26,796 nt of DNA from a virus (Duplodnaviria > Heunggongvirae > Uroviricota > Caudoviricetes): IMG/VR virus record IMGVR_UViG_3300045988_147492. The stretch is one strand, 5' to 3'. Under the pieces are notes generated by a model. That model was not told the origin of the DNA and made no database searches. It worked only from the letters and a program-made list of their open reading frames with translations. A program made the position numbers and the translations under genes. This document shows positions 932-26,796 of the stretch, one piece after another. Position 1 is the first letter of the stretch; every line of letters starts with the position of its first letter.

Positions 932-1123
932 ATGGAGTGGATTACACATATCATCACTTTCTTTGTCGGACTGGGAGCGGGTTGGTCGATTCGTGTCGTG
1001 TTTTCATCTAGAAAGCAAATTGGTAATTCCAGCGTGAACTCAAACAATCATACAGTTACTCAAACTGGTAACAGTGTTACAAATGGAAGTATTGTTGGCG
1101 GTAATCAGGATAGGTCACATTAA
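932..1123 (+). CDS. Small membrane-anchored protein (63 aa): one N-terminal hydrophobic helix followed by a Gly/Asn/Thr-rich repeat tail
   Basis: ATG start with an upstream AAGGA. Residues about 4-24 (ITHIITFFVGLGAGWSIRVVF) are hydrophobic. The C-terminal 20 aa (TVTQTGNSVTNGSIVGGNQD) recur at the N-terminus of the next ORF. AT-rich codon usage differs from the phage backbone. Confidence 0.5.
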   Translation: MEWITHIITFFVGLGAGWSIRVVFSSRKQIGNSSVNSNNHTVTQTGNSVTNGSIVGGNQDRSH

Positions 1124-1134
1124 GAGGTGTTGGT

Positions 1135-1698
1135 GTGTCTATCGAACAGTCAGGAAATACCGTAACAAATGGCAACATAATTTCTGGTGATCAGACTAAT
1201 CATATATTCAATTATCCTGTTAAAGGAACTAACCGGGAGATACAGAAACTTTATGAGTGTTTGAAGAGAGGTGATATAGGGGAAGCGGTTCCGGGGTTTT
1301 GTGCTGAACTAGAGCATTATATGTCCCTTCAGCCTGATATTGATGTTCGGGGGTTAGACGCTAAATTACTCGAGAGTAATAGAAAAGATTTGTTGTTTTT
1401 AGCTAAGCAGATGAAGGAAAAAGCGACAAAAGCCATAATGCGTCGCCAGACGTCAAAAACTGCACAAAGAATATTTGTAATAATTTTAGATCAAATTCAT
1501 TTTGATTTTATAACGAAAGTAACACCACTTATAGAAGCGGATAGCTCCAGAGTGATTGTTGATGAGAAAATCGCTTCAATAATTGATGAATTATATTCGT
1601 CTTTGGGAGAGAACTTGCTAGAGCTAACAGCAAAAGATCTCTTGGGATTACTATTTTTTCTGGGTGGCAATTGCCATATAAGGTGGGATAAATGCTAA
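1135..1698 (+). CDS. Predicted alpha-helical protein (187 aa, GTG start) beginning with the same 20-aa repeat motif as the preceding ORF; candidate effector or adaptor component
   Basis: GTG start at 1135 preceded by GAGG at 1124-1127. The N-terminus SIEQSGNTVTNGNIISGDQT matches the tail of the upstream ORF. The 3' end overlaps the next ORF by 7 nt, consistent with an operon. Confidence 0.55.
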   Translation: MSIEQSGNTVTNGNIISGDQTNHIFNYPVKGTNREIQKLYECLKRGDIGEAVPGFCAELEHYMSLQPDIDVRGLDAKLLESNRKDLLFLAKQMKEKATKAIMRRQTSKTAQRIFVIILDQIHFDFITKVTPLIEADSSRVIVDEKIASIIDELYSSLGENLLELTAKDLLGLLFFLGGNCHIRWDKC

Positions 1699-2192
1699 TT
1701 TACCATCCAGCATATGATGCATATCATTGTTTATTCAGAATGATTGCTCTTATAGACCATGTAAATGAAATTGAGGTAGATAAGGCCAGAATTTTGGACT
1801 TCTATCTGCTATTTCCTGCTTTGGTATCTGAAATTAGAATGCCTCATAATTATTCTTCAATGAAGAAAGAAGCGAAGAAGTATTCTAATATATATCGGGA
1901 TCCTATTAATGTTAGATCTACATTCAGAGATATGTATGAAATTCAAATGGCAGCAATAAGATGTCTTGCAGCTACTGGGTTGGTTGAGATGGATTGTCTT
2001 GAGAAAAACATTATAAAGAGAACAGATAAGTCTGTTCCAGATGGCTTATTACTTTCTATTAATAATTTTATTAATACGAATAAAACTATTAATACATTTA
2101 TCATAGATACACTATCTAAATTCCATTTGGTTGGAAAAGATGGTTTAAAAGATAGAACGAAGTTAATGGAGTTTAGATATGACTATTCTTAA
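1692..2192 (+). CDS. Small helical protein (166 aa), translationally coupled between the upstream ORF and the ATPase; candidate middle or accessory component
   Basis: ATG at 1692 with AGGTGGG at about 1679-1685. It overlaps the upstream ORF by 7 nt and the downstream ATPase by 14 nt. Composition is AT-rich like the rest of the cassette. Confidence 0.6.
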   Translation: MLIYHPAYDAYHCLFRMIALIDHVNEIEVDKARILDFYLLFPALVSEIRMPHNYSSMKKEAKKYSNIYRDPINVRSTFRDMYEIQMAAIRCLAATGLVEMDCLEKNIIKRTDKSVPDGLLLSINNFINTNKTINTFIIDTLSKFHLVGKDGLKDRTKLMEFRYDYS

Positions 2193-4116
2193 TCCATCTT
2201 TTTTTGTTAGTAAATTAAAAGTTTTCCAAGCTGGGCATGAAGCATTTAGCTGTGTTTTCCATAAAGGGGTAAATGTAATAAGGGGGCGAAATAGCTCTGG
2301 CAAAACTACTGTTATGGATCTTTTAGCATTTTCACTTGGTGCTGAAAATATTAGCTTGAAACCAACAGCTCTTTTATGTTCATTTACCATGGTTGAAGTG
2401 CTTTTGAATAATAATCTTGCCTGTTTTAAGCGGGAGATAAGTTCAGAATCCATGCGGCCGTTGAGTATTTTTTGGGGCTCGATGGATAAAGCTCTTAACT
2501 CATCACCGAGTCAGTGGCAAACTTATCCTTTTAAGCGTTCAGAAAAATCACTGAGTTTTTCTCAGGTAATTCTAAATGCTTTGGATATGCCTCTAGCTCA
2601 AGGAGAGGGTGCTTCAATTTTAACAATGCATCAAATCCTACGTGTATTATATGCAGATCAGCCATCTCTTCATAGTCCTATATTTAGGAACGATAATTTT
2701 GATAGAGCTCTAACACGAGAGACTATTGGTGATTATTTATGTGGTATATTTGATGACAAACTTTATAGCTCTTTGATTAGGCTTAAACAGGTTGATGCTG
2801 AACTTTCGACAAAAATTGTTGAGCTGAAAAGCATATTTAAAGTTCTTGGACGCTCTGGGCAATCGCAGCATGTAAGTTTTATTGACGATAAAATAAAAGA
2901 GCTAAGAGAGAAGAAAGAAAAGATCAATGGAGAGCTTATCTCTCTCAAAGAGAGTAATAACTCTTCTGTTAATGATAAAAATGCTGATAAAACTAAAACT
3001 AACAACCTTCGAAAAAATTTAAATAAAGCGAAGGAAGAAGAAGTAAAAAATATTGACAGTATCCATATGTTAGAAATGGAGATAGCTGACTCTGAAATGT
3101 TCATTAATGAGTTAGAATCCAGATTGCGCTCTCTTAATGAATCAAGTATTGCCAGAGACTATTTTAGCAACGTTAAATTTCAATTTTGTCCCAGTTGTTT
3201 AAGTGAGTTGAATATTTCCTCTGAAAATGAGTGCTCATTATGTAAAAATCACGCGCCAGAGGGTAGTGATGCTCCTCAATTATTAAGGATGAAAAATGAG
3301 ATTTCTATCCAATTAAAAGAATCCAGAGATCTTCTTGAGCATAATTATGTAAAACTGAGAGAGCTTAAGAGCCAATCTCCTGCTTTAAAGCAAAAAGTGC
3401 GAGATTTAATTCGTGAATATGAAGAAGTCTCTAAGGTTTGGGAAAATGCCTATGAAATAGAGTTTGAAACTCTTACTAAGGCTCTGGGACGTGTTGAAGA
3501 AGAAATTAAACAGGCTTGTGAATTACAAAAACTTAGTGATGTAATATCTGATTTGCAAAAAGATCGTGATAGTCTGCAGTCAGAGAAGGAGAGATTGTCC
3601 TCTTTAATTGAATCTTTGGAGAGTAAAGAGGAATATAGGAAGAAGGATATTTCTAAAACTATAGAAAACATTATGAAAAGACTTCTTAAAAAAGATCTTC
3701 CATTGCAGACTGAATTTATTGATCCTAGAAAAGTTAATTTTAGCTTTGCCGATAATACTGTTTATGTAAATGGGTCTAAGTATTTTTCAGAAAGTTCAGC
3801 AGTTGTATTAAGACATCTCTTTCATTTAGCATTGTTAACTGCAAGTATTGAAAAAAAATACATGAGATTACCTCGTTTCCTAATGCTTGATGGAATTGAC
3901 GATGGTGGAATGGAGAAAGAGCGCAGTCACAATCTGCAGAAAATAATAGTACAAGAAACTCAATCGTATCAATATGATTTTCAAATAATTTATGCTACAT
4001 CGGAGATTAATCCAGAATATGAAAATACCGATTTGATTGTTGGTCGATATTTTAATCCAGATGATAAATCATTAAAGATAAATTATACCGCTCTTGATAA
4101 AGATTTATTGAACTAA
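2179..4116 (+). CDS. SMC/Rad50-like ABC ATPase (645 aa): N-terminal Walker A, long central coiled coil with a CxxC-x11-CxxC zinc-hook-like motif, C-terminal signature-like and Walker B/D-loop/H-loop region; no nuclease domain
   Basis: Walker A GRNSSGKT at residues 36-43 (nt 2284-2307). A Lys/Glu/Leu-rich heptad-like region spans roughly residues 190-520 and produces the antisense low-complexity ORFs at 2763-3104 and 3450-3671. Cysteines C337, C340, C352 and C355 lie at nt 3187-3243. Walker-B-like FLMLDGIDDGG sits near residue 567, followed by ERSHNL. ATG at 2179 with GGAG 8 nt upstream. Confidence 0.8.
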   Translation: MTILNPSFFVSKLKVFQAGHEAFSCVFHKGVNVIRGRNSSGKTTVMDLLAFSLGAENISLKPTALLCSFTMVEVLLNNNLACFKREISSESMRPLSIFWGSMDKALNSSPSQWQTYPFKRSEKSLSFSQVILNALDMPLAQGEGASILTMHQILRVLYADQPSLHSPIFRNDNFDRALTRETIGDYLCGIFDDKLYSSLIRLKQVDAELSTKIVELKSIFKVLGRSGQSQHVSFIDDKIKELREKKEKINGELISLKESNNSSVNDKNADKTKTNNLRKNLNKAKEEEVKNIDSIHMLEMEIADSEMFINELESRLRSLNESSIARDYFSNVKFQFCPSCLSELNISSENECSLCKNHAPEGSDAPQLLRMKNEISIQLKESRDLLEHNYVKLRELKSQSPALKQKVRDLIREYEEVSKVWENAYEIEFETLTKALGRVEEEIKQACELQKLSDVISDLQKDRDSLQSEKERLSSLIESLESKEEYRKKDISKTIENIMKRLLKKDLPLQTEFIDPRKVNFSFADNTVYVNGSKYFSESSAVVLRHLFHLALLTASIEKKYMRLPRFLMLDGIDDGGMEKERSHNLQKIIVQETQSYQYDFQIIYATSEINPEYENTDLIVGRYFNPDDKSLKINYTALDKDLLN

Positions 4117-4120
4117 CAAC

Positions 4121-4150
4121 CAAAACCATGCATAACCATGCATGGTTTTG
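4121..4150. terminator. Perfect 12-bp inverted repeat (caaaaccatgca / tgcatggttttg) with a 6-nt loop, containing a 10-bp direct repeat aaccatgcat x2; putative terminator and cargo boundary
   Basis: Arms at 4121-4132 and 4139-4150 are exact reverse complements. It lies 5 nt after the ATPase stop and about 100 bp before cos. The T-run is partly inside the stem, so terminator function is uncertain. Confidence 0.4.
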
Positions 4151-4249
4151 CATTTATATCAGCTTGTTTTTGAATCGGGGCAAGTCCAGGGGTGGTAAGC
4201 TGTTTGGAGAAAACTGCAACTGCATTAAAACCGCCCCGTGAAGCGGGCG

Positions 4250-4268
4250 GGCGAGGCGGGGAAAGCAC
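4250..4268. other. cos: cos site: 19-nt cohesive-end sequence of P2-type phages (GGCGAGGCGGGGAAAGCAC)
   Basis: The sequence ggcgaggcggggaaagcac is present at 4250-4268, in the expected place between the cargo locus and portal gene Q. The match to the P2 cohesive end is from memory, not from a search. Confidence 0.6.
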
Positions 4269-4410
4269 TGCGCGCTGGCGGTGGTGCTGATTTTATTTTT
4301 TCAGCGTCTCAGCGCGTCGTGACGGCGCTTAGTCTGCCCGTTGAGGCGTTGGTGTGTCTGCGGGGTGTTTTGTGCGGTGGTGAGCGTGTGAGGGCGTGAT
4401 GACGGGGTGT

Positions 4411-4432
4411 AAAAAAGCCGCCCGCAGGCGGC
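4411..4432 (-). terminator. Rho-independent terminator immediately after Q on the minus strand
   Basis: On the minus strand the Q stop at 4440-4438 is followed by GCCGCC-UGCG-GGCGGC (6-bp GC stem, 4-nt loop; plus-strand coordinates 4417-4432) and then six U residues (plus-strand aaaaaa at 4411-4416). Confidence 0.6.
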
Positions 4433-4437
4433 GATGT

Positions 4438-5472
4438 TCAGCCGTTGTCAGTGTCCAGTGAGTAGTTTTTAAATCGGATGACCTCCTGACCGAGCCAGCC
4501 GTTTATCTCGCGGATCCTGTCCTGTAACGGGATAAGCTCATTGCGGACAAAGACCTTTGCCACTTTCTCAATATCACCCAGCGACCCGACGTTTTCCGGC
4601 TTGCCACCCATCAACTGAAAGGGGATGCGGTGCGCGTCAAGCAGGTCAGCGGCGCTGGCTTTTTTGATATTAAAAAAATCGTCCTTCGTTGCCACTTCAC
4701 TGAGCGGGATAATTTTAATGCCGTCGGCTTTCCCCTGAGGGGCATAGAGAAACAGATTTTTAAAGTTATTGCGGCCTTTCGACTTAACCATGTTTTCGCG
4801 AAGCATTTCGATATCGTTGCGATCCTGCACGGCATCGGTGACGTACATGATGTATCCGGCATGTGCGCCGTTTTCGTAATACTTGCGGCGGAACAGCGTG
4901 GCCGACTCATTCAGCCAGGCAGAGTTAAGGGCGCTGAGATATTCCGGCAGGCCGTACAGCTCCTGATTAATATCGGGCTCCAGCAGGTGAAACACGGAGC
5001 CGGGCGCGAAGGCTGTCGGCTCGTTGAAGGACGGCACCCACCAGTAAACATCCTCTTCCACGCCACGACGGGTATATTTCGCCGGTGAGGTTTCCAGTCT
5101 GATGACCTTACTGGTGGTGCTGTAGCGCTTTTCCAGAAACGCATTACCGAACACCAGAAAATCCAGCACAAAGCGGCTGAAATCCTGCTGAGAAAGCCAC
5201 GGATGCGGGATAAATGTCGAGGCCAGAATATTACGTTTGACGTAAATCGGTGAGCTGTGATGCACGGCAGCACGCAGGCTTTTTGCCAGACCGGTAAAGC
5301 TGACCGGTGGCTCATACCATCTGCCGTTACTGATGCACTCGACGTAATCCAGAATGTCACGGCGGTCGAGTACCGGCACCGGCTCACCAAAGGTGAATGC
5401 CTCCATTTTCGGGGCGCTGGCGGTGATTGTTTTTGCCGCAGGTTGCGGTGTTTTCCCTTTTTTCTTGCTCAT
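4438..5472 (-). CDS. Q: Portal protein (344 aa)
   Basis: The length equals P2 gpQ. It lies next to cos and is transcribed towards it. Its start overlaps the stop of P (TGATG on the minus strand), as in the P2 P-Q operon. Confidence 0.93.
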   Translation of the reverse strand: MSKKKGKTPQPAAKTITASAPKMEAFTFGEPVPVLDRRDILDYVECISNGRWYEPPVSFTGLAKSLRAAVHHSSPIYVKRNILASTFIPHPWLSQQDFSRFVLDFLVFGNAFLEKRYSTTSKVIRLETSPAKYTRRGVEEDVYWWVPSFNEPTAFAPGSVFHLLEPDINQELYGLPEYLSALNSAWLNESATLFRRKYYENGAHAGYIMYVTDAVQDRNDIEMLRENMVKSKGRNNFKNLFLYAPQGKADGIKIIPLSEVATKDDFFNIKKASAADLLDAHRIPFQLMGGKPENVGSLGDIEKVAKVFVRNELIPLQDRIREINGWLGQEVIRFKNYSLDTDNG

Positions 5473-16110: not shown

Positions 16111-18360
16111 ATGAGCACAAAATTCAGAACCGTTATCACCACTGCCGGTGCAGCAAAGCTGGCAGCGGCAACCGCACCGGGAGGGCGGAAGGTCAACATT
16201 ACCACGATGGCCGTCGGGGATGGCGGTGGTAAATTGCCTGTCCCGGATGCCGGACAGACCGGGCTTATCCATGAAGTCTGGCGACATGCGCTGAACAAAA
16301 TCAGCCAGGACAAACGAAACAGTAATTATATTATCGCAGAGCTGGTTATTCCGCCGGAGGTGGGCGGTTTCTGGATGCGTGAGCTTGGCCTGTACGATGA
16401 TGCTGGAACGTTAATTGCTGTGGCGAACATGGCCGAAAGTTATAAGCCTGCCCTTGCCGAAGGCTCAGGGCGTTCGCAGACCTGCCGCATGGTCATCATC
16501 GTCAGCAGTGTGGCCTCAGTGGCGCTGACCATTGACACCACAACGGTGATGGCGACGCAGGATTACGTTGATGACAAAATTGCAGAGCACGAACAGTCAC
16601 GACGTCACCCGGACGCCTCGCTGACCGCAAAAGGTTTTACTCAGTTAAGCAGTGCGACCAACAGCACGTCTGAAACACTGGCCGCAACGCCGAAAGCGGT
16701 AAAGGCCGCTTATGATCTTGCTAACGGGAAATATACCGCGCAGGATGCCACCACAGCGCGAAAAGGCCTTGTCCAGCTCAGTAGCGCCACCAATAGCGAT
16801 TCTGAAACGCTTGCGGCAACGCCAAAGGCGGTAAAGGCAGCATATGACCTCGCTAACGGGAAATATACCGCACAGGATGCCACCACCGCGCGAAAAGGTC
16901 TTGTCCAGCTAAGTAGCGCCACCAACAGCGATTCTGAAACGCTGGCTGCAACGCCAAAGGCGGTTAAGACAGCGTATGACCTTGCTAACGGGAAATACAC
17001 TGCACAGGATGCCACCACCGCGCGGAAAGGCCTTGTCCAGCTCAGTAGCGCCACCAACAGTGATTCTGAAACGCAGGCCGCAACACCAAAAGCGGTGAAG
17101 TCTGCCTATGACAATGCTGAAAAACGTCTTCAGAAAGATCAGAACGGTGCGGATATTCCTGATAAAGGACGCTTCCTGAGTAACATTAATGTTTACAGCA
17201 AAGGTGAAGTGGATAAGAAAAAGGGAATGCGAAAGTATTCGTTTGCAGCCCCTGCAAATGTCGTTGCCGGGAAGTGGTATCCCGTTATCTTTCGCCGTGC
17301 TGCCAGCCTTTCAGGAGAAATGGCATCCCGCGTCGTTATTTCCACTGGTTGTTATAACAGCGATTATGTAATGAATAACTGCGAGTTTAATGGCATGGTT
17401 ATGCCCGGAGGCTGGACTGATCGTGGTTCATATGCGGCAGGTTATTTCTGGACGTATCAGACTAATGAGCGTTCAATCCATTCCATTGTTACAAGCCTGA
17501 AAGATGATGATGTATGTAGTGTTTTTTATGTTGAAGCCAGAGCTTTCCCTGTGCAAATTCTTGCAGAGGAAGGGCTAACGGTTATTGTTCCGACAGAGGA
17601 TTATGTCGTCGGTCAAACGACATATAAGTGGGGGGCAACTAATCCTGCTACAGAAAGCACGAACGCACAGGCTATTCTGGATTTTAAAAATGGGCGCGGT
17701 TATTACTGCTCACATCCATTTATTTCCAGCCTTTCGGGAAATGCTGCAACAGCAACGAAGTTAGCGAACGCAAGAAATATTAATGGTGTCAGATTTGATG
17801 GCTCTGCTGATATAAATATTAATACACTGGTATCCAGAAACCGTGTTACTGCATTAGGTGGGAGCGTAAAGGGGACACCAGGTATTCAGATGTATGAGGC
17901 ATACAACAATGGCTACCCAACAGCCTATGGTAATGTGCTTCATCTCACTGGCGTAACCGCAGTAGGAGAGGGTGAGTTACTTATTGGCTGGAGTGGAACC
18001 AGCGGTGCTCATGCTCCGGCATATATTCGCTCCCGACGAGATACCACAGATGCTAACTGGTCTGGATGGGCGCAACTATATACAACTGCTCATAAACCCT
18101 CAGCGGGAGATGTTGGTGCATACACCAAAGCTGAATCAGATTCACGTTATGTGAGAGACATGCGGCTGGGCGGTGCATCTACATATAAACCAGCAAATAA
18201 TGGTACTACATGGACGCATCAGGCTCCGCCAGGTTGCGTATATACCGGCATTATTGTTCAGGATACCGGCTCAAACTCTGCCGATAACATTGGTGGCGTA
18301 TATTACAGACCGGTGCAGAAATACATTAACGGGACATGGTATAACGTGGCGCAGGTATAA
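16111..18360 (+). CDS. H: Tail fibre protein H (749 aa) with a conserved N-terminus, about four tandem 40-aa repeats, and an AT-richer divergent C-terminal receptor-binding region
   Basis: The position matches P2 gpH, but the protein is about 80 aa longer than P2 H (recalled as 669 aa). Repeats of TARKGLVQLSSATNSDSETLAATPKAVKAAYDLANGKYTAQDAT are visible in the translation. Confidence 0.9.
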   Translation: MSTKFRTVITTAGAAKLAAATAPGGRKVNITTMAVGDGGGKLPVPDAGQTGLIHEVWRHALNKISQDKRNSNYIIAELVIPPEVGGFWMRELGLYDDAGTLIAVANMAESYKPALAEGSGRSQTCRMVIIVSSVASVALTIDTTTVMATQDYVDDKIAEHEQSRRHPDASLTAKGFTQLSSATNSTSETLAATPKAVKAAYDLANGKYTAQDATTARKGLVQLSSATNSDSETLAATPKAVKAAYDLANGKYTAQDATTARKGLVQLSSATNSDSETLAATPKAVKTAYDLANGKYTAQDATTARKGLVQLSSATNSDSETQAATPKAVKSAYDNAEKRLQKDQNGADIPDKGRFLSNINVYSKGEVDKKKGMRKYSFAAPANVVAGKWYPVIFRRAASLSGEMASRVVISTGCYNSDYVMNNCEFNGMVMPGGWTDRGSYAAGYFWTYQTNERSIHSIVTSLKDDDVCSVFYVEARAFPVQILAEEGLTVIVPTEDYVVGQTTYKWGATNPATESTNAQAILDFKNGRGYYCSHPFISSLSGNAATATKLANARNINGVRFDGSADININTLVSRNRVTALGGSVKGTPGIQMYEAYNNGYPTAYGNVLHLTGVTAVGEGELLIGWSGTSGAHAPAYIRSRRDTTDANWSGWAQLYTTAHKPSAGDVGAYTKAESDSRYVRDMRLGGASTYKPANNGTTWTHQAPPGCVYTGIIVQDTGSNSADNIGGVYYRPVQKYINGTWYNVAQV
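16621..17110 (+). repeat. In-frame tandem repeat array inside H: about 3.8 copies of a 120-bp unit
   Basis: Near-identical 120-bp units with synonymous differences begin at about 16621, 16741, 16861 and 16981; they also generate the spurious antisense ORF at 16710-17057. Confidence 0.85.
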
Positions 18361-18363
18361 TTT

Positions 18364-18891
18364 ATGCAGCATTTGATAAATATAACGGCAGGTAATCCAA
18401 AAACGGTTGAACAATATCAATTGACAAAGAACTTTGATGTCGTCTGGTTTTTTACAGAAGATGGTAAGAACTGGTACGAAGAACAAAAGTATTTTGCTGA
18501 TGACACGATAAAAATAGCGTACGACAAAGATAATATCATCCGCTATGTGGAAAAGGATGTGACAGCTATCAGACCGGATGGATTAAGTGTTGTTGAAGTG
18601 GCGGATATTACTGCTAACCGACGGGCGGACATTTCAGGGAACTGGATGTTTAAGGACGGCAAAGTGATTAAACGCATTTATACGGCAGAGGAATTACAGC
18701 AGCAGGCAGAAATTCGGAAAGCCAGACTTCTTGCAGATGCTGAATCCGTGATTTTGCCGCTGGAGCGCGCGGTCAGACTGAACATGGCAACAGATGAGGA
18801 GCGTAGCCGACTGGAATCATGGGAACGCTACAGCGTTCTGGTCAGTCGTGTGGATCCTGCAAATCCTGAATGGCCGGAAATGCCGCAATAA
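18364..18891 (+). CDS. G: Tail fibre assembly chaperone G (175 aa)
   Basis: Size and position match P2 gpG; the AT-richer composition continues from the 3' part of H, consistent with a swapped H-C-terminus/G module. Confidence 0.88.
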
Positions 18892-19106
18892 GTTGTATTA
18901 GCTTACATATCTATGGCACAGAGTAAAGCCTAATCTGACAGTCCGCTCTGTGCCAGAAGCGGATGTTGTAAAGTTTATTTGGAGAATAATGGTTAGATGA
19001 ACTATGTAGATCATAGCCCTCAAAAGTCAGTAGTCTTACACCATATAAATAGTCATTTAGAGATAGTACACCACCTACAAAAAAAGAGATAAAGCGCGCA
19101 AGCTGC

Positions 19107-19329: not shown

Positions 19330-19707
19330 TCAATAGCGTATGCTCATCGAAGAAATAAACTCATAAAATGTAAAGACAGCCAGCAAAAACATACAGATAA
19401 AGATAAGGGAAATAGCACACTTAACTAAGGGCTGAACCCCCCGAGGTGTTCCCCATGGTTTAGACATTTGGGTTATAACCCAAATAAATAAGGCCACAAA
19501 ACAGCAAACACCAGCCAATCCGAGCAGAGATATTATGACAACTCCAAACAGATTTCCAACATCTAGTTTATCTGTTTTTGCAACTAGGGTTAACAAACCA
19601 GCAATAATAGTTGCAATCGATATTCCCGCAATGGTTGTGAGATCGGCGATAACAGCCAGTTTTTCTTTAGTATTTCCTTGAGTAAAAACCTCTAAAATTG
19701 ATTTCAT
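19330..19707 (-). CDS. Integral membrane protein (125 aa, about three transmembrane helices); candidate lysogenic-conversion or superinfection-exclusion cargo at the P2 Z/fun position
   Basis: ATG at 19707 with an AGGTGG Shine-Dalgarno upstream on the minus strand; the track's 129-aa form starts at an upstream GTG. Three hydrophobic segments (LAVIADLTTIAGISIATIIAGLLTLVA, LFGVVIISLLGLAGVCCFVALFIWVI, LVKCAISLIFICMFLLAVFTFYEFI). AT-rich; ends just before the bidirectional terminator. Confidence 0.6.
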   Translation of the reverse strand: MKSILEVFTQGNTKEKLAVIADLTTIAGISIATIIAGLLTLVAKTDKLDVGNLFGVVIISLLGLAGVCCFVALFIWVITQMSKPWGTPRGVQPLVKCAISLIFICMFLLAVFTFYEFISSMSIRY

Positions 19708-19749
19708 GGAAATAACCACCTACTATCGATTATATTCAGGAGCTTTTTA

Positions 19750-26741: not shown

Positions 26742-26768
26742 AAAAAATAAGCCCGTGTAAGGGAGATT
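26742..26768. other. att: P2-type attachment-site core (attR of a prophage, or attP): AAAAAATAAGCCCGTGTAAGGGAGATT
   Basis: The 27-bp sequence sits just after the ogr terminator, where the P2 att core lies between ogr and int. The identification of the core sequence is from memory. Confidence 0.55.
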
Positions 26769-26796
26769 ACACAGGCTAAGGAGGTGGTTCCTGGTA

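Follow-up and report, generated by a model that had tools for sequence, protein, structure and literature searches.

The window analysed here is a stretch of 26,796 nucleotides of viral DNA from a P2-like Escherichia coli prophage carrying a P2-type tail-fibre gene, H. The tandem repeat array in this gene is real and ordinary, since its copies are ancient and stable, many public genomes carry the identical allele, and the repeat itself is already known in kind. The array is probably a conserved proximal spacer of four Pf2 copies in a 44-aa register, which over evolutionary time has been reshuffled by homologous recombination, either unequal or between alleles, and which doubles as an in-frame joint for recombination. 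On this model the array lies between the domain that attaches the fibre to the baseplate and a distal receptor-binding module that can be swapped. Its copy number and unit order would change by gene conversion and by homologous recombination that is unequal or shifted in register, the partners being diverged H alleles carried by co-resident prophages or by infecting phages, over an evolutionary timescale. The conserved motif would provide the in-frame joint at which distal modules are exchanged, and each unit would contribute a fixed length increment to the shaft of a trimeric fibre.

Gene H lies between the baseplate gene I and the tail-fibre assembly gene G, in the same V-W-J-I-H-G order as in P2, and begins with a PF12571 tail-collar fibre N-terminal domain (Table 1). 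Over its first 519 nt H shares 97.1% identity with its P2 counterpart, and across the N-terminal domain nucleotide identity to P2, 2H4, YpM46 and others is 97-98.5%. By homology, H would be a trimeric receptor-binding fibre that needs gpG for its assembly. At 749 aa it exceeds the 669-aa P2 gpH (AF063097) by the 80 aa that the first-pass annotation had estimated.

Table 1. Features of gene H and its downstream neighbour, in window coordinates.
Feature	Coordinates	Strand	Basis or remark
Tail-fibre gene H, P2-like (Peduovirus) prophage	16111..18360	+	749 aa, intact ORF; ORF list, Pfam PF12571 and PF03406
N-terminal baseplate-attachment domain of H	16111..16629	+	aa 1-173; Pfam Phage_tail_fib at aa 1-151, PF12571 at 2.9e-58
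Repeat unit 1, type A (KGFTQLSSATNSTSE...)	16630..16761	+	44 aa; groups with the first unit of every examined allele
Repeat unit 2, type C (KGLVQLSSATNSDSE...)	16762..16893	+	44 aa; position held by type B in most four-unit alleles
Repeat unit 3, type C' (…AVKTAYD…)	16894..17025	+	44 aa
Repeat unit 4, type D, motif only (KGLVQLSSATNSDSETQAATPKAVKSAYD)	17026..17112	+	29 aa
Conserved linker NAEKRLQKDQNGADIPDKG	17113..17169	+	Module junction shared with Mu tail fibre S (residues ~145-165); PDB match 5yvq/9ki1/8ju3
Distal mosaic part of H, presumably receptor-binding	17170..18360	+	blastn mosaic map
Gene G, tail-fibre assembly chaperone	18364..18891	+	ORF; "tail fiber assembly protein" in the annotation of an identical prophage

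That H contains an in-frame tandem array was borne out by TRF, which located it at 16657-17112 (score 688, 88% matches, no indels, period 132, 3.5 copies) and found no second array scoring >40 in the window. When shifted by 132 nt the array is 86.3% identical to itself over 351 nt, far above chance, and PF03406 (Phage_fiber_2) matches H in four stretches with 266.4 bits (E 5.3e-81), the Pfam gathering score being 22 bits. The repeating unit is 132 bp or 44 aa, and not 120 bp and 40 aa as first proposed; it comprises a 25-aa conserved core up to AATPKAVK followed by a 19-aa linker. Units start at aa 174, 218, 262 and 306 of H. An earlier count of about 3.8 copies holds only approximately, as TRF gives 3.5 and the protein resolves into three full units and a 29-aa fourth motif, together spanning 483 nt (16630-17112); the likeness of unit 4 to the other units stops past codon 29. 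The family corresponds to InterPro IPR005068, 'phage tail fibre repeat' (Pf2), whose Pfam model covers ~42 residues against the tandem period of 44 aa in the window. In members of the family and in the window H alike, the repeat occupies the proximal part of a tail-fibre protein, with no essential difference between them.

The proposed expansion presupposed that P2 H does not have the same number of units, and indeed there are two motifs in P2 gpH (one full unit plus a core) and four in the window, so the notion of two extra units holds. The arithmetic behind it does not, as two units amount to 88 aa; the gain is only 80 aa because the distal part is 8 aa shorter (419 aa after the last AATPKAVK in the window, 427 aa in P2), and the two distal modules are non-homologous. 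P2 gpH resembles the window H in its first unit (5/132 differences) and in the C-terminal tip motif (…PIQKYINGTWYNVAQV). In P2, however, a different distal module is joined after the AATPKAVK of unit 2, whereas in the window the four motifs are followed by a Mu-S-like linker and then by a different, mosaic distal part.

The age of the copies can be judged from the divergence between them. As had been noted before, they differ mainly at synonymous sites: 23 of the 30 variable columns of units 1-3 are third codon positions (5 and 2 are first and second positions), and synonymous outnumber nonsynonymous codon differences by 17:3, 16:4 and 11:1 in the unit comparisons. This had been taken to indicate recent expansion by slipped recombination, a conclusion that the amount of divergence does not support. 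Full units are 81-91% identical in DNA, and dS between them ranges from 0.43 (units 2 and 3) to ~1.0 (unit 1 against either unit 2 or unit 3), with dN of 0.01-0.07 and dN/dS of ~0.02-0.07. In contrast, the N-terminal domain of the window H shows a dS of 0.06-0.09 against P2, 2H4, YpM46, DC1 and others, such that unit dS is 5-15 times the flanking-domain divergence between phages. As the differences are mostly synonymous while affecting 9-19% of nucleotides, the units are evidently old paralogues whose protein has been kept almost identical by strong purifying selection. Repeat copies that have diverged only synonymously are thus to be read as a sign of age and purifying selection, not of recency. 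Unit age could appear inflated if the units came from very divergent alleles; the N-terminal domain of P37 has a dS of 1.6 against the window H.

Comparison with other P2-like phages suggests where the units come from. The order of unit types is A-C-C'-D in the window, A-B-C-D in 2H4, YpM46, DC1, 12474II, ETEC-2265, Z1322, OkiPb and SCU115, and indeed in most four-unit alleles, A-C-D in fiAA91-ss and PapRG, A-B-C-C'-D in the five-unit allele of E. coli L65, and a single A unit in S21. Peduovirus P2_2H4, Escherichia phage 9W, Yersinia phage vB_YpM_46, 'P2 DC1' (OU784750) and many E. coli prophages share the array length and terminal linker of the window, but differ from it in being A-B-C-D. Unit 1 differs from the first units of all alleles examined at only 1-5 positions per 87-132 nt, and unit 4 groups with the last unit of YpM46, 2H4, P37 and fiAA91 (3-5/87 differences). 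The internal units 2 and 3, although the most similar pair in the array (12/132 differences), each have their best match in a different genome. The nearest relatives of unit 2 are unit 3 of 5 in L65 (5/132) and unit 3 of 4 in P2DC1 (7/132), and those of unit 3 are unit 3 of 4 in ETEC-2265 (5/132), unit 2 of 3 in fiAA91-ss (6/132) and unit 3 of 4 in P2_2H4 (7/132). Such a distribution is not what recent duplication of neighbouring units predicts. Furthermore, differences from the closest full-length relatives cluster in the 483-nt array, which holds 23/44 of those from O169 and 31/55 of those from SCU115. In P2_2H4, whose H protein has 748 aa, H nt 1-1643 are shared with the window at 96.5%, and 38/57 differences fall in the array. 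The array DNA therefore reads as a patchwork of unit variants that occur elsewhere in P2-like phages in other orders and numbers (1-6), with recombination deduced from the pattern of differences and each unit (87-132 nt) offering few informative sites. That P2-like H genes are mosaic and recombine has been described already (Garcia et al. 2008, on L-413C, cited in PMC7460101).

The existence of the five-unit allele in L65 means that the array may be a contraction, in which unit B was lost from an A-B-C-C'-D ancestor, and not an expansion of a two-unit array like that of P2 or of a three-unit one. The third unit of L65 is the nearest relative of window unit 2, and five- and six-unit alleles carry the same Mu-S-like terminal linker. 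Window unit 3 and L65 unit 4, however, differ at 10/132 positions and are not especially close. In addition, alleles with these flanks include A-C-D (PapRG, fiAA91-ss), which makes gain of one C unit equally economical, and A-B-C-D (2H4, SCU115), in which B could have been converted to C at unchanged length; unit 2 of O169 indeed resembles a B/C hybrid. The A-C-C'-D order might thus have been reached by gain of a C unit by A-C-D, loss of B from A-B-C-C'-D or B-to-C conversion in A-B-C-D, the informative sites per unit being too few to choose between these routes, and we hold contraction to be possible while tending to think it unlikely.

Natural alleles have 1-6 units, always with 44-aa spacing, and four is the commonest count in the samples examined, which are top-scoring protein clusters and the 60 best records and not censuses. 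Among these 60 best E. coli genome records with both flanks (95-100% identity), 58 have four units and two have three, and all seven relatives matching at >=99.8% have four. The exact H protein occurs on 73 public-database contigs, its 90% protein cluster is almost uniformly 749 aa long, and the array is identical across isolates from hospital, pig, human, carrot and mouse. At least 80% of a query comprising the N-terminus and four units was covered at a place in 458/5,426 complete E. coli genomes, which, with the alleles of one to six units, removes the ground for regarding the window genome as specially expanded. Complete E. coli genomes contain roughly 1,750 matching H alleles. The A-C-C'-D allele is stable and widespread. 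In the literature searched we found no description of copy-number variation of the PF03406 array in P2-like phages.

It could be argued that, despite these observations, the array expanded recently in this lineage, through slipped-strand or unequal recombination, and constitutes a length-hypervariable site of the phase-variation type. The copies are tandem, in frame and free of indels, they number two more than in P2, P2-like phages do vary in copy number, and the two three-unit records among the 60 best indicate some variation even between alleles with the same flanks. Nevertheless, the divergence between units and their closer kinship to units of other genomes argue against recency, and neighbouring units match perfectly in register over no more than 23 nt, a poor substrate for frequent slippage. 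Four units are retained in the 58 records even at flank divergence of up to ~5%. The 'phase-like variation' of the first-pass annotation is consequently unsupported, given these 58 records and the 73 contigs with the exact protein, and we consider recent expansion highly improbable. As at contingency loci, the repeats are tandem and in frame within a protein of surface recognition, and their copy number is polymorphic in the population; the units, however, are long (132 bp) and diverged (81-91% identity), the array is stable among close relatives, and it does not behave like such a locus.

The unit count could also have been distorted by assembly error, with repeats collapsed or expanded, and many of the homologues are indeed 'partial' and end at contig edges. 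The units can, however, be told apart individually by their 9-19% differences, the reading frame is intact, and the exact window allele was verified in the independent complete genomes of E. coli Z142-2, Z142-4, Z142-7 and KSC207, three further complete genomes matching at 99.8% over the 1,401-nt query. The likelihood of such an artefact is negligible.

The second role assigned to the array, that of a recombination joint, is suggested by the positions at which homology between H alleles ends. In blastn comparisons homology to YpM46, P2DC1 and 12474II stops at H nt 1059, the last position of the linker. H nt 1060-1643 are common to the window and P2_2H4, nt 1644-1950 have no counterpart in the ten phage H genes compared, and nt 1951-2250 form a conserved C-terminus, the last 110 aa of which matched the C-terminus of Mu S/S' and a short tail fibre in a PDB sequence search. 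Alignments of other alleles stop at H nt 594, 726, 860 and 990, that is, ~75 nt into a unit. Junctions to different distal modules thus fall either at a constant position in the motif, following AATPKAVK, or immediately past the terminal NGADIP linker.

The same junction is seen in phage Mu. The constant part of Mu tail fibre S (gp49; PDB 5yvq, 9ki1 and 8ju3) contains a Pf2 core and then a linker (…AVKIAMDNANARLAKDRNGADIPNK…) that align to unit 4 and the linker of the window, and its C-terminal tip is related to that of the window H; Mu S, however, has a single Pf2 copy and not an array. The Mu cryo-EM paper states that 'the N-terminus' of gp49 was built, in passages that do not describe the fold of the motif region. 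The distal part of the Mu fibre is switched by inversion of the G segment, whereas no invertase system was seen in the window. A relic invertase crossover site (gix/cix-like) at the NGADIP linker, ~17160-17200, was considered and rejected, the weak resemblance detected by eye being explained by shared coding.

The repeat might also have a second role, either on the opposite strand or as a structured RNA, and an antisense frame of 115 aa (16710-17057) is open across 2.6 units. This, however, is a stop-free frame that is simply repeated. Variation is concentrated at third codon positions of the + strand reading frame (5/2/23), the pattern that selection on the H protein alone would produce, and on this ground the antisense ORF was rejected. 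No Rfam family matched the array region. The prospect of a second function is vanishingly small.

The first-pass annotation suggested modelling the repeat as a coiled-coil or beta-helical shaft segment. AF2 modelled the N-terminal domain (pLDDT 66-91 for aa 1-133), while a single-sequence monomer of aa 151-370 had a mean pLDDT of 44 and was uninformative for fold; with a 40-sequence alignment of aa 1-360 only the N-terminal domain was modelled, the array having a pLDDT of 25-37. Whether queried with the complete protein or with just the array, the PDB yielded no sequences carrying the motif other than the Mu S entries. Pf2 repeats also occur in the side tail fibres of lambda (Stf/StfR) and in collagen-like fibre proteins of EHEC prophages, which differ from the window H in having a PF08400 N-terminal domain and collagen and coiled-coil partner modules (Ghosh et al. 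2012, PMC3368898). In those fibres the neighbouring modules show length polymorphism in multiples of the structural repeat, and according to the same study little is known of Pf2 structure or function. It is plausible that unit number sets the length or reach of the P2-type fibre. A more elaborate proposal is that unit number (1-6) is an adaptive 'ruler' tuning fibre reach to the depth of the host surface layer (LPS core, O-antigen, capsule), and that synonymous divergence is itself selected to stabilize the chosen length against recombination. What the sequences themselves show is that several copy numbers occur in each distal-junction class (3-6, 3-5, 3-5 and 1-2 units), and that the protein is strongly conserved but the DNA is not. 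We regard the proposal as improbable.

The discovery value of the array is small, in that the repeat family is in Pfam (PF03406), H mosaicism has been described and the exact protein is public. For phage engineering, the alleles of 1-6 units represent a natural series of fibre-spacer lengths, with two natural in-frame fusion points, one after AATPKAVK and the other after NGADIP. The array region misleads automatic annotation and breaks short-read assemblies; one RefSeq genome lists an intact ORF identical to the window H as pseudogene fragments, and many database homologues stop at contig edges.

Gene H of this P2-like (Peduovirus) prophage contains an in-frame tandem array with a period of 132 bp (44 residues) and not the 120 bp and 40 residues proposed in the first-pass annotation, which had correctly recognized the array itself. 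Tandem Repeats Finder identified a single strong array across the window (3.5 copies, 88% matches, no indels, score 688), with no second array above a score of 40, and a gap-free repeat search recovered three 220-nt copies at 132-nt spacing. Shifted by one period, the array is 86% identical to itself over 351 nt, and thus it is not a chance feature. The three complete units conform to KG[FL][TV]QLSSATNS[TD]SETLAATPKAVK[AT]AYDLANGKYTAQDATTAR, and the fourth retains the first 29 residues before continuing as NAEKRLQKDQNGADIP. All four stretches match the Pfam family PF03406, 'Phage tail fibre repeat' (266 bits, where the cut-off is 22), while residues 1-151 of H correspond to PF12571. In kind the feature is already known: the repeat family is catalogued, H is a well-known mosaic gene, and the allele is common and stable.

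Features of the prophage referred to in the text (window positions)
Feature	Position (nt)	Strand	Remark
End of replication gene A	1-430
Cargo genes	932-4116	+	between the end of gene A and the portal gene
Baseplate genes V, W, J, I			upstream of H
Gene H	16111-18360	+	intact ORF, 749 aa
Array unit 1	from 16630		from aa 174
Array unit 2	from 16762		from aa 218
Array unit 3	from 16894		from aa 262
Array unit 4	from 17026		from aa 306
Array (Tandem Repeats Finder)	16657-17112
ORF antisense to H	16710-17057		115 aa
Linker	17113-17200		3' of the array
Gene G	18364-18891		fibre assembly; directly after H
Hypothetical ORF	19330-19719	-	129 aa; between gene G and the sheath gene
CyaR/RyeE sRNA, 3' part	26745-26796	-	just past ogrK; cut by the window end

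Classic P2 gpH (AF063097, 669 aa) has one complete unit and a second core, and the window H, as had been suggested, has two units more than P2 (four against two). The 80-aa difference in length, however, does not represent two 40-aa units but reflects 88 additional residues of array and a shorter distal part, with 419 aa following the last AATPKAVK in the window H and 427 aa in P2 gpH, where the sequence continues TVMDETNKK... into an unrelated distal module. Four units in H are not unusual; the same number is present in phages P2_2H4, 9W, vB_YpM_46 and the 12474 series, and in OU784750, a second 'P2' isolate. Among the 120 top-scoring protein clusters, a sample biased toward high scores, there are 2-6 units, most often four, at an invariable 44-aa spacing. 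Inspection of complete genomes verified alleles with five units (L65), three (PapRG, fiAA91-ss, P37 and STYP1) and one (S21, which has a P2-type distal module). A query comprising the N-terminus and the array had matches in 1,738 of 5,426 complete E. coli genomes, in 458 of which at least 80% of the query was covered at one place. Copy number varies within every class of distal junction, from 3 to 6 units for the Mu-S-like linker, 3 to 5 for both the LANGKQPA and the NDNANGRVP type, and 1 to 2 for the P2 type.

The first-pass annotation also reported that the copies differ mainly at synonymous positions, and took this to indicate recent expansion by slipped recombination. The observation is sound: any two complete units differ at 12 to 25 of their 132 nt, with third codon positions accounting for 23 of the 30 variable columns. 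The interpretation is not supported. Between units 2 and 3 dS (Nei-Gojobori) is 0.43, and between unit 1 and either of these about 1.0, with dN of 0.01-0.07, whereas the non-repeated N-terminal domain of H, compared with nine alleles (P2, 2H4, YpM46, DC1, STYP1, fiAA91-ss, pro147, AC1 and 12474II), displays dS values of 0.06-0.09. Thus, silent-site divergence among the units exceeds that among their carrier phages 5- to 15-fold, and the synonymous differences point in the opposite direction to a recent origin. The protein sequence of the unit has been held nearly constant despite this divergence, and synonymous-only divergence of this kind is characteristic of long-standing copies kept under purifying selection.

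When units were typed by DNA sequence in 21 alleles (A, B, C, C' and D being variants of the 44-residue unit), the first (A) and last (D) were positionally conserved in all. Most four-unit alleles are A-B-C-D and the window is A-C-C'-D; B-type units contain NSTSE and C-type units NSDSE. Within this set, window unit 2 is nearest to the third of five units in L65 (5/132 differences) and the third of four in P2DC1 (7/132), and unit 3 to ETEC-2265 unit 3 (5/132) and fiAA91-ss unit 2 (6/132). The two differ from each other at 12 of 132 positions, which is the maximum observed between orthologous C units of A-B-C-D alleles (mean 7.5). One combination of N-terminus and distal module carries A-C-D in PapRG (705 aa), A-B-C-D in 2H4 and SCU115, and A-C-C'-D in the window, KSC207 and O169, indicating that an equal unit count was reached by different routes. 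It could be argued with equal justification that the window array arose through gain of a C unit by A-C-D, through loss of B from A-B-C-C'-D, or through conversion of B to C.

With respect to its closest full-length relatives, differences in H are enriched roughly four-fold within the 483-nt array, which holds 23 of the 44 that separate it from O169, 31 of 55 for SCU115 and 38 of 57 for 2H4 (the last over H nt 1-1643). Unit 2 of O169 is intermediate between B and C types, and some units are hybrid-like. When the array was searched with flanks of about 230 nt (upstream) and about 640 nt (downstream), 58 of the 60 best records were collinear, with four units and 95-100% identity, and two were exactly 132 nt shorter. 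Seven of the matches reach at least 99.8%; they stem from hospital, pig, human, carrot and mouse isolates, and none departs from four units. The exact 749-aa protein has been recorded on 73 contigs, and the 90% cluster to which it belongs consists almost entirely of 749-aa members. Adjacent units share no perfect in-register match longer than 23 nt, and a stretch that short is ill suited to frequent unequal crossing-over by RecA-dependent exchange. In view of this short match and the near-uniform unit number, the phase-like variation once envisaged for the array is unsupported by the population data. The array appears to be a recombination hotspot in sequence that is stable in length.

Alignments of other alleles to H end at nt 594, 726, 860 and 990 of the gene, each about 75 nt into a unit and right after AATPKAVK, with further alignments ending at nt 1059, after NGADIP. 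The conserved motif would provide an in-frame joint for swapping distal receptor-binding modules, which agrees with the description of P2-like H proteins as mosaic in the part of PMC7460101 that summarises Garcia et al. (2008). The linker, NAEKRLQKDQNGADIPDKG, is common to the Mu tail fibre S near the constant/invertible boundary, and among P2-like alleles has at least three downstream variants (DKGRFLSNINVY, GKDTFTKNIGAC and DKRLFLRNIGAT). Residues about 99-170 of Mu S, which form the end of its constant part, align with the terminal unit and linker of the window. An informal look at the linker region revealed no convincing relic invertase crossover site.

The only PDB sequences with the motif are Mu S entries; on gp49, the Mu cryo-EM paper states only that its N-terminus was modelled, and AF2 monomer models of the array (pLDDT 25-44) are uninformative, favouring neither a helical, a beta-structured nor a bead-like unit. 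Given that the 44-aa period is strict and the protein sequence strongly conserved, each unit would be expected to add a fixed length to the fibre. Unit number may tune fibre reach, and silent divergence may stabilise the array, although sequence data alone are unlikely to demonstrate this. Rfam gave no match in the array region. The antisense ORF was rejected as a candidate gene; its stop-free frame is repeated, and the concentration of variation at third positions agrees with selection acting on the + frame alone.

E. coli Z142-2 has a prophage, adjoining cyaR and yegQ, that is 99.98% identical to the window; the 5 mismatches over 26,796 nt all lie outside H. The CyaR/RyeE match (Rfam, 67.7 bits) beyond ogrK shows that the window's prophage neighbours cyaR; in the matching genome, yegQ follows. 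The cargo genes, in the old/tin variable hotspot of P2, constitute an anti-phage defence system. They encode a small hypothetical ORF, two proteins annotated by PGAP as 'ABC-three component system' components and an AAA ATPase of 645 aa, which matches the PADLOC LmuB (Lamassu) models (4.5e-47); the two small proteins have no PADLOC match. The 129-aa ORF, hydrophobic and membrane-like, likewise has no PADLOC match, and the identical prophage has it annotated as hypothetical, at 378 nt; in P2 its slot is occupied by the non-essential conversion gene Z/fun.

In Z142-2, RefSeq/PGAP splits the identical H into two 'incomplete' pseudogene fragments, at locus positions 17001-17969 and 18780-18992 (window 16111-17079 and 17890-18102). 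The Z142-2 ORF is uninterrupted, KSC207 has the same array annotated within an intact 749-aa protein, and the pseudogene call looks like an annotation artefact arising from a mosaic protein. Among the 120 database homologues listed, a large share are 'partial' proteins (300-600 aa) whose sequence stops within the array or shortly past it, where the contig itself ends, indicating that short-read assemblies of E. coli prophages are routinely interrupted by this repeat and the mosaic distal region. The P2-like prophage of E. coli OkiPb01690 (locus positions 1801-4647) has a fibre region disrupted by an insertion: its H is shortened to 491 aa, and the place of gene G, immediately 3' of H, is taken by an IS66-family transposase.
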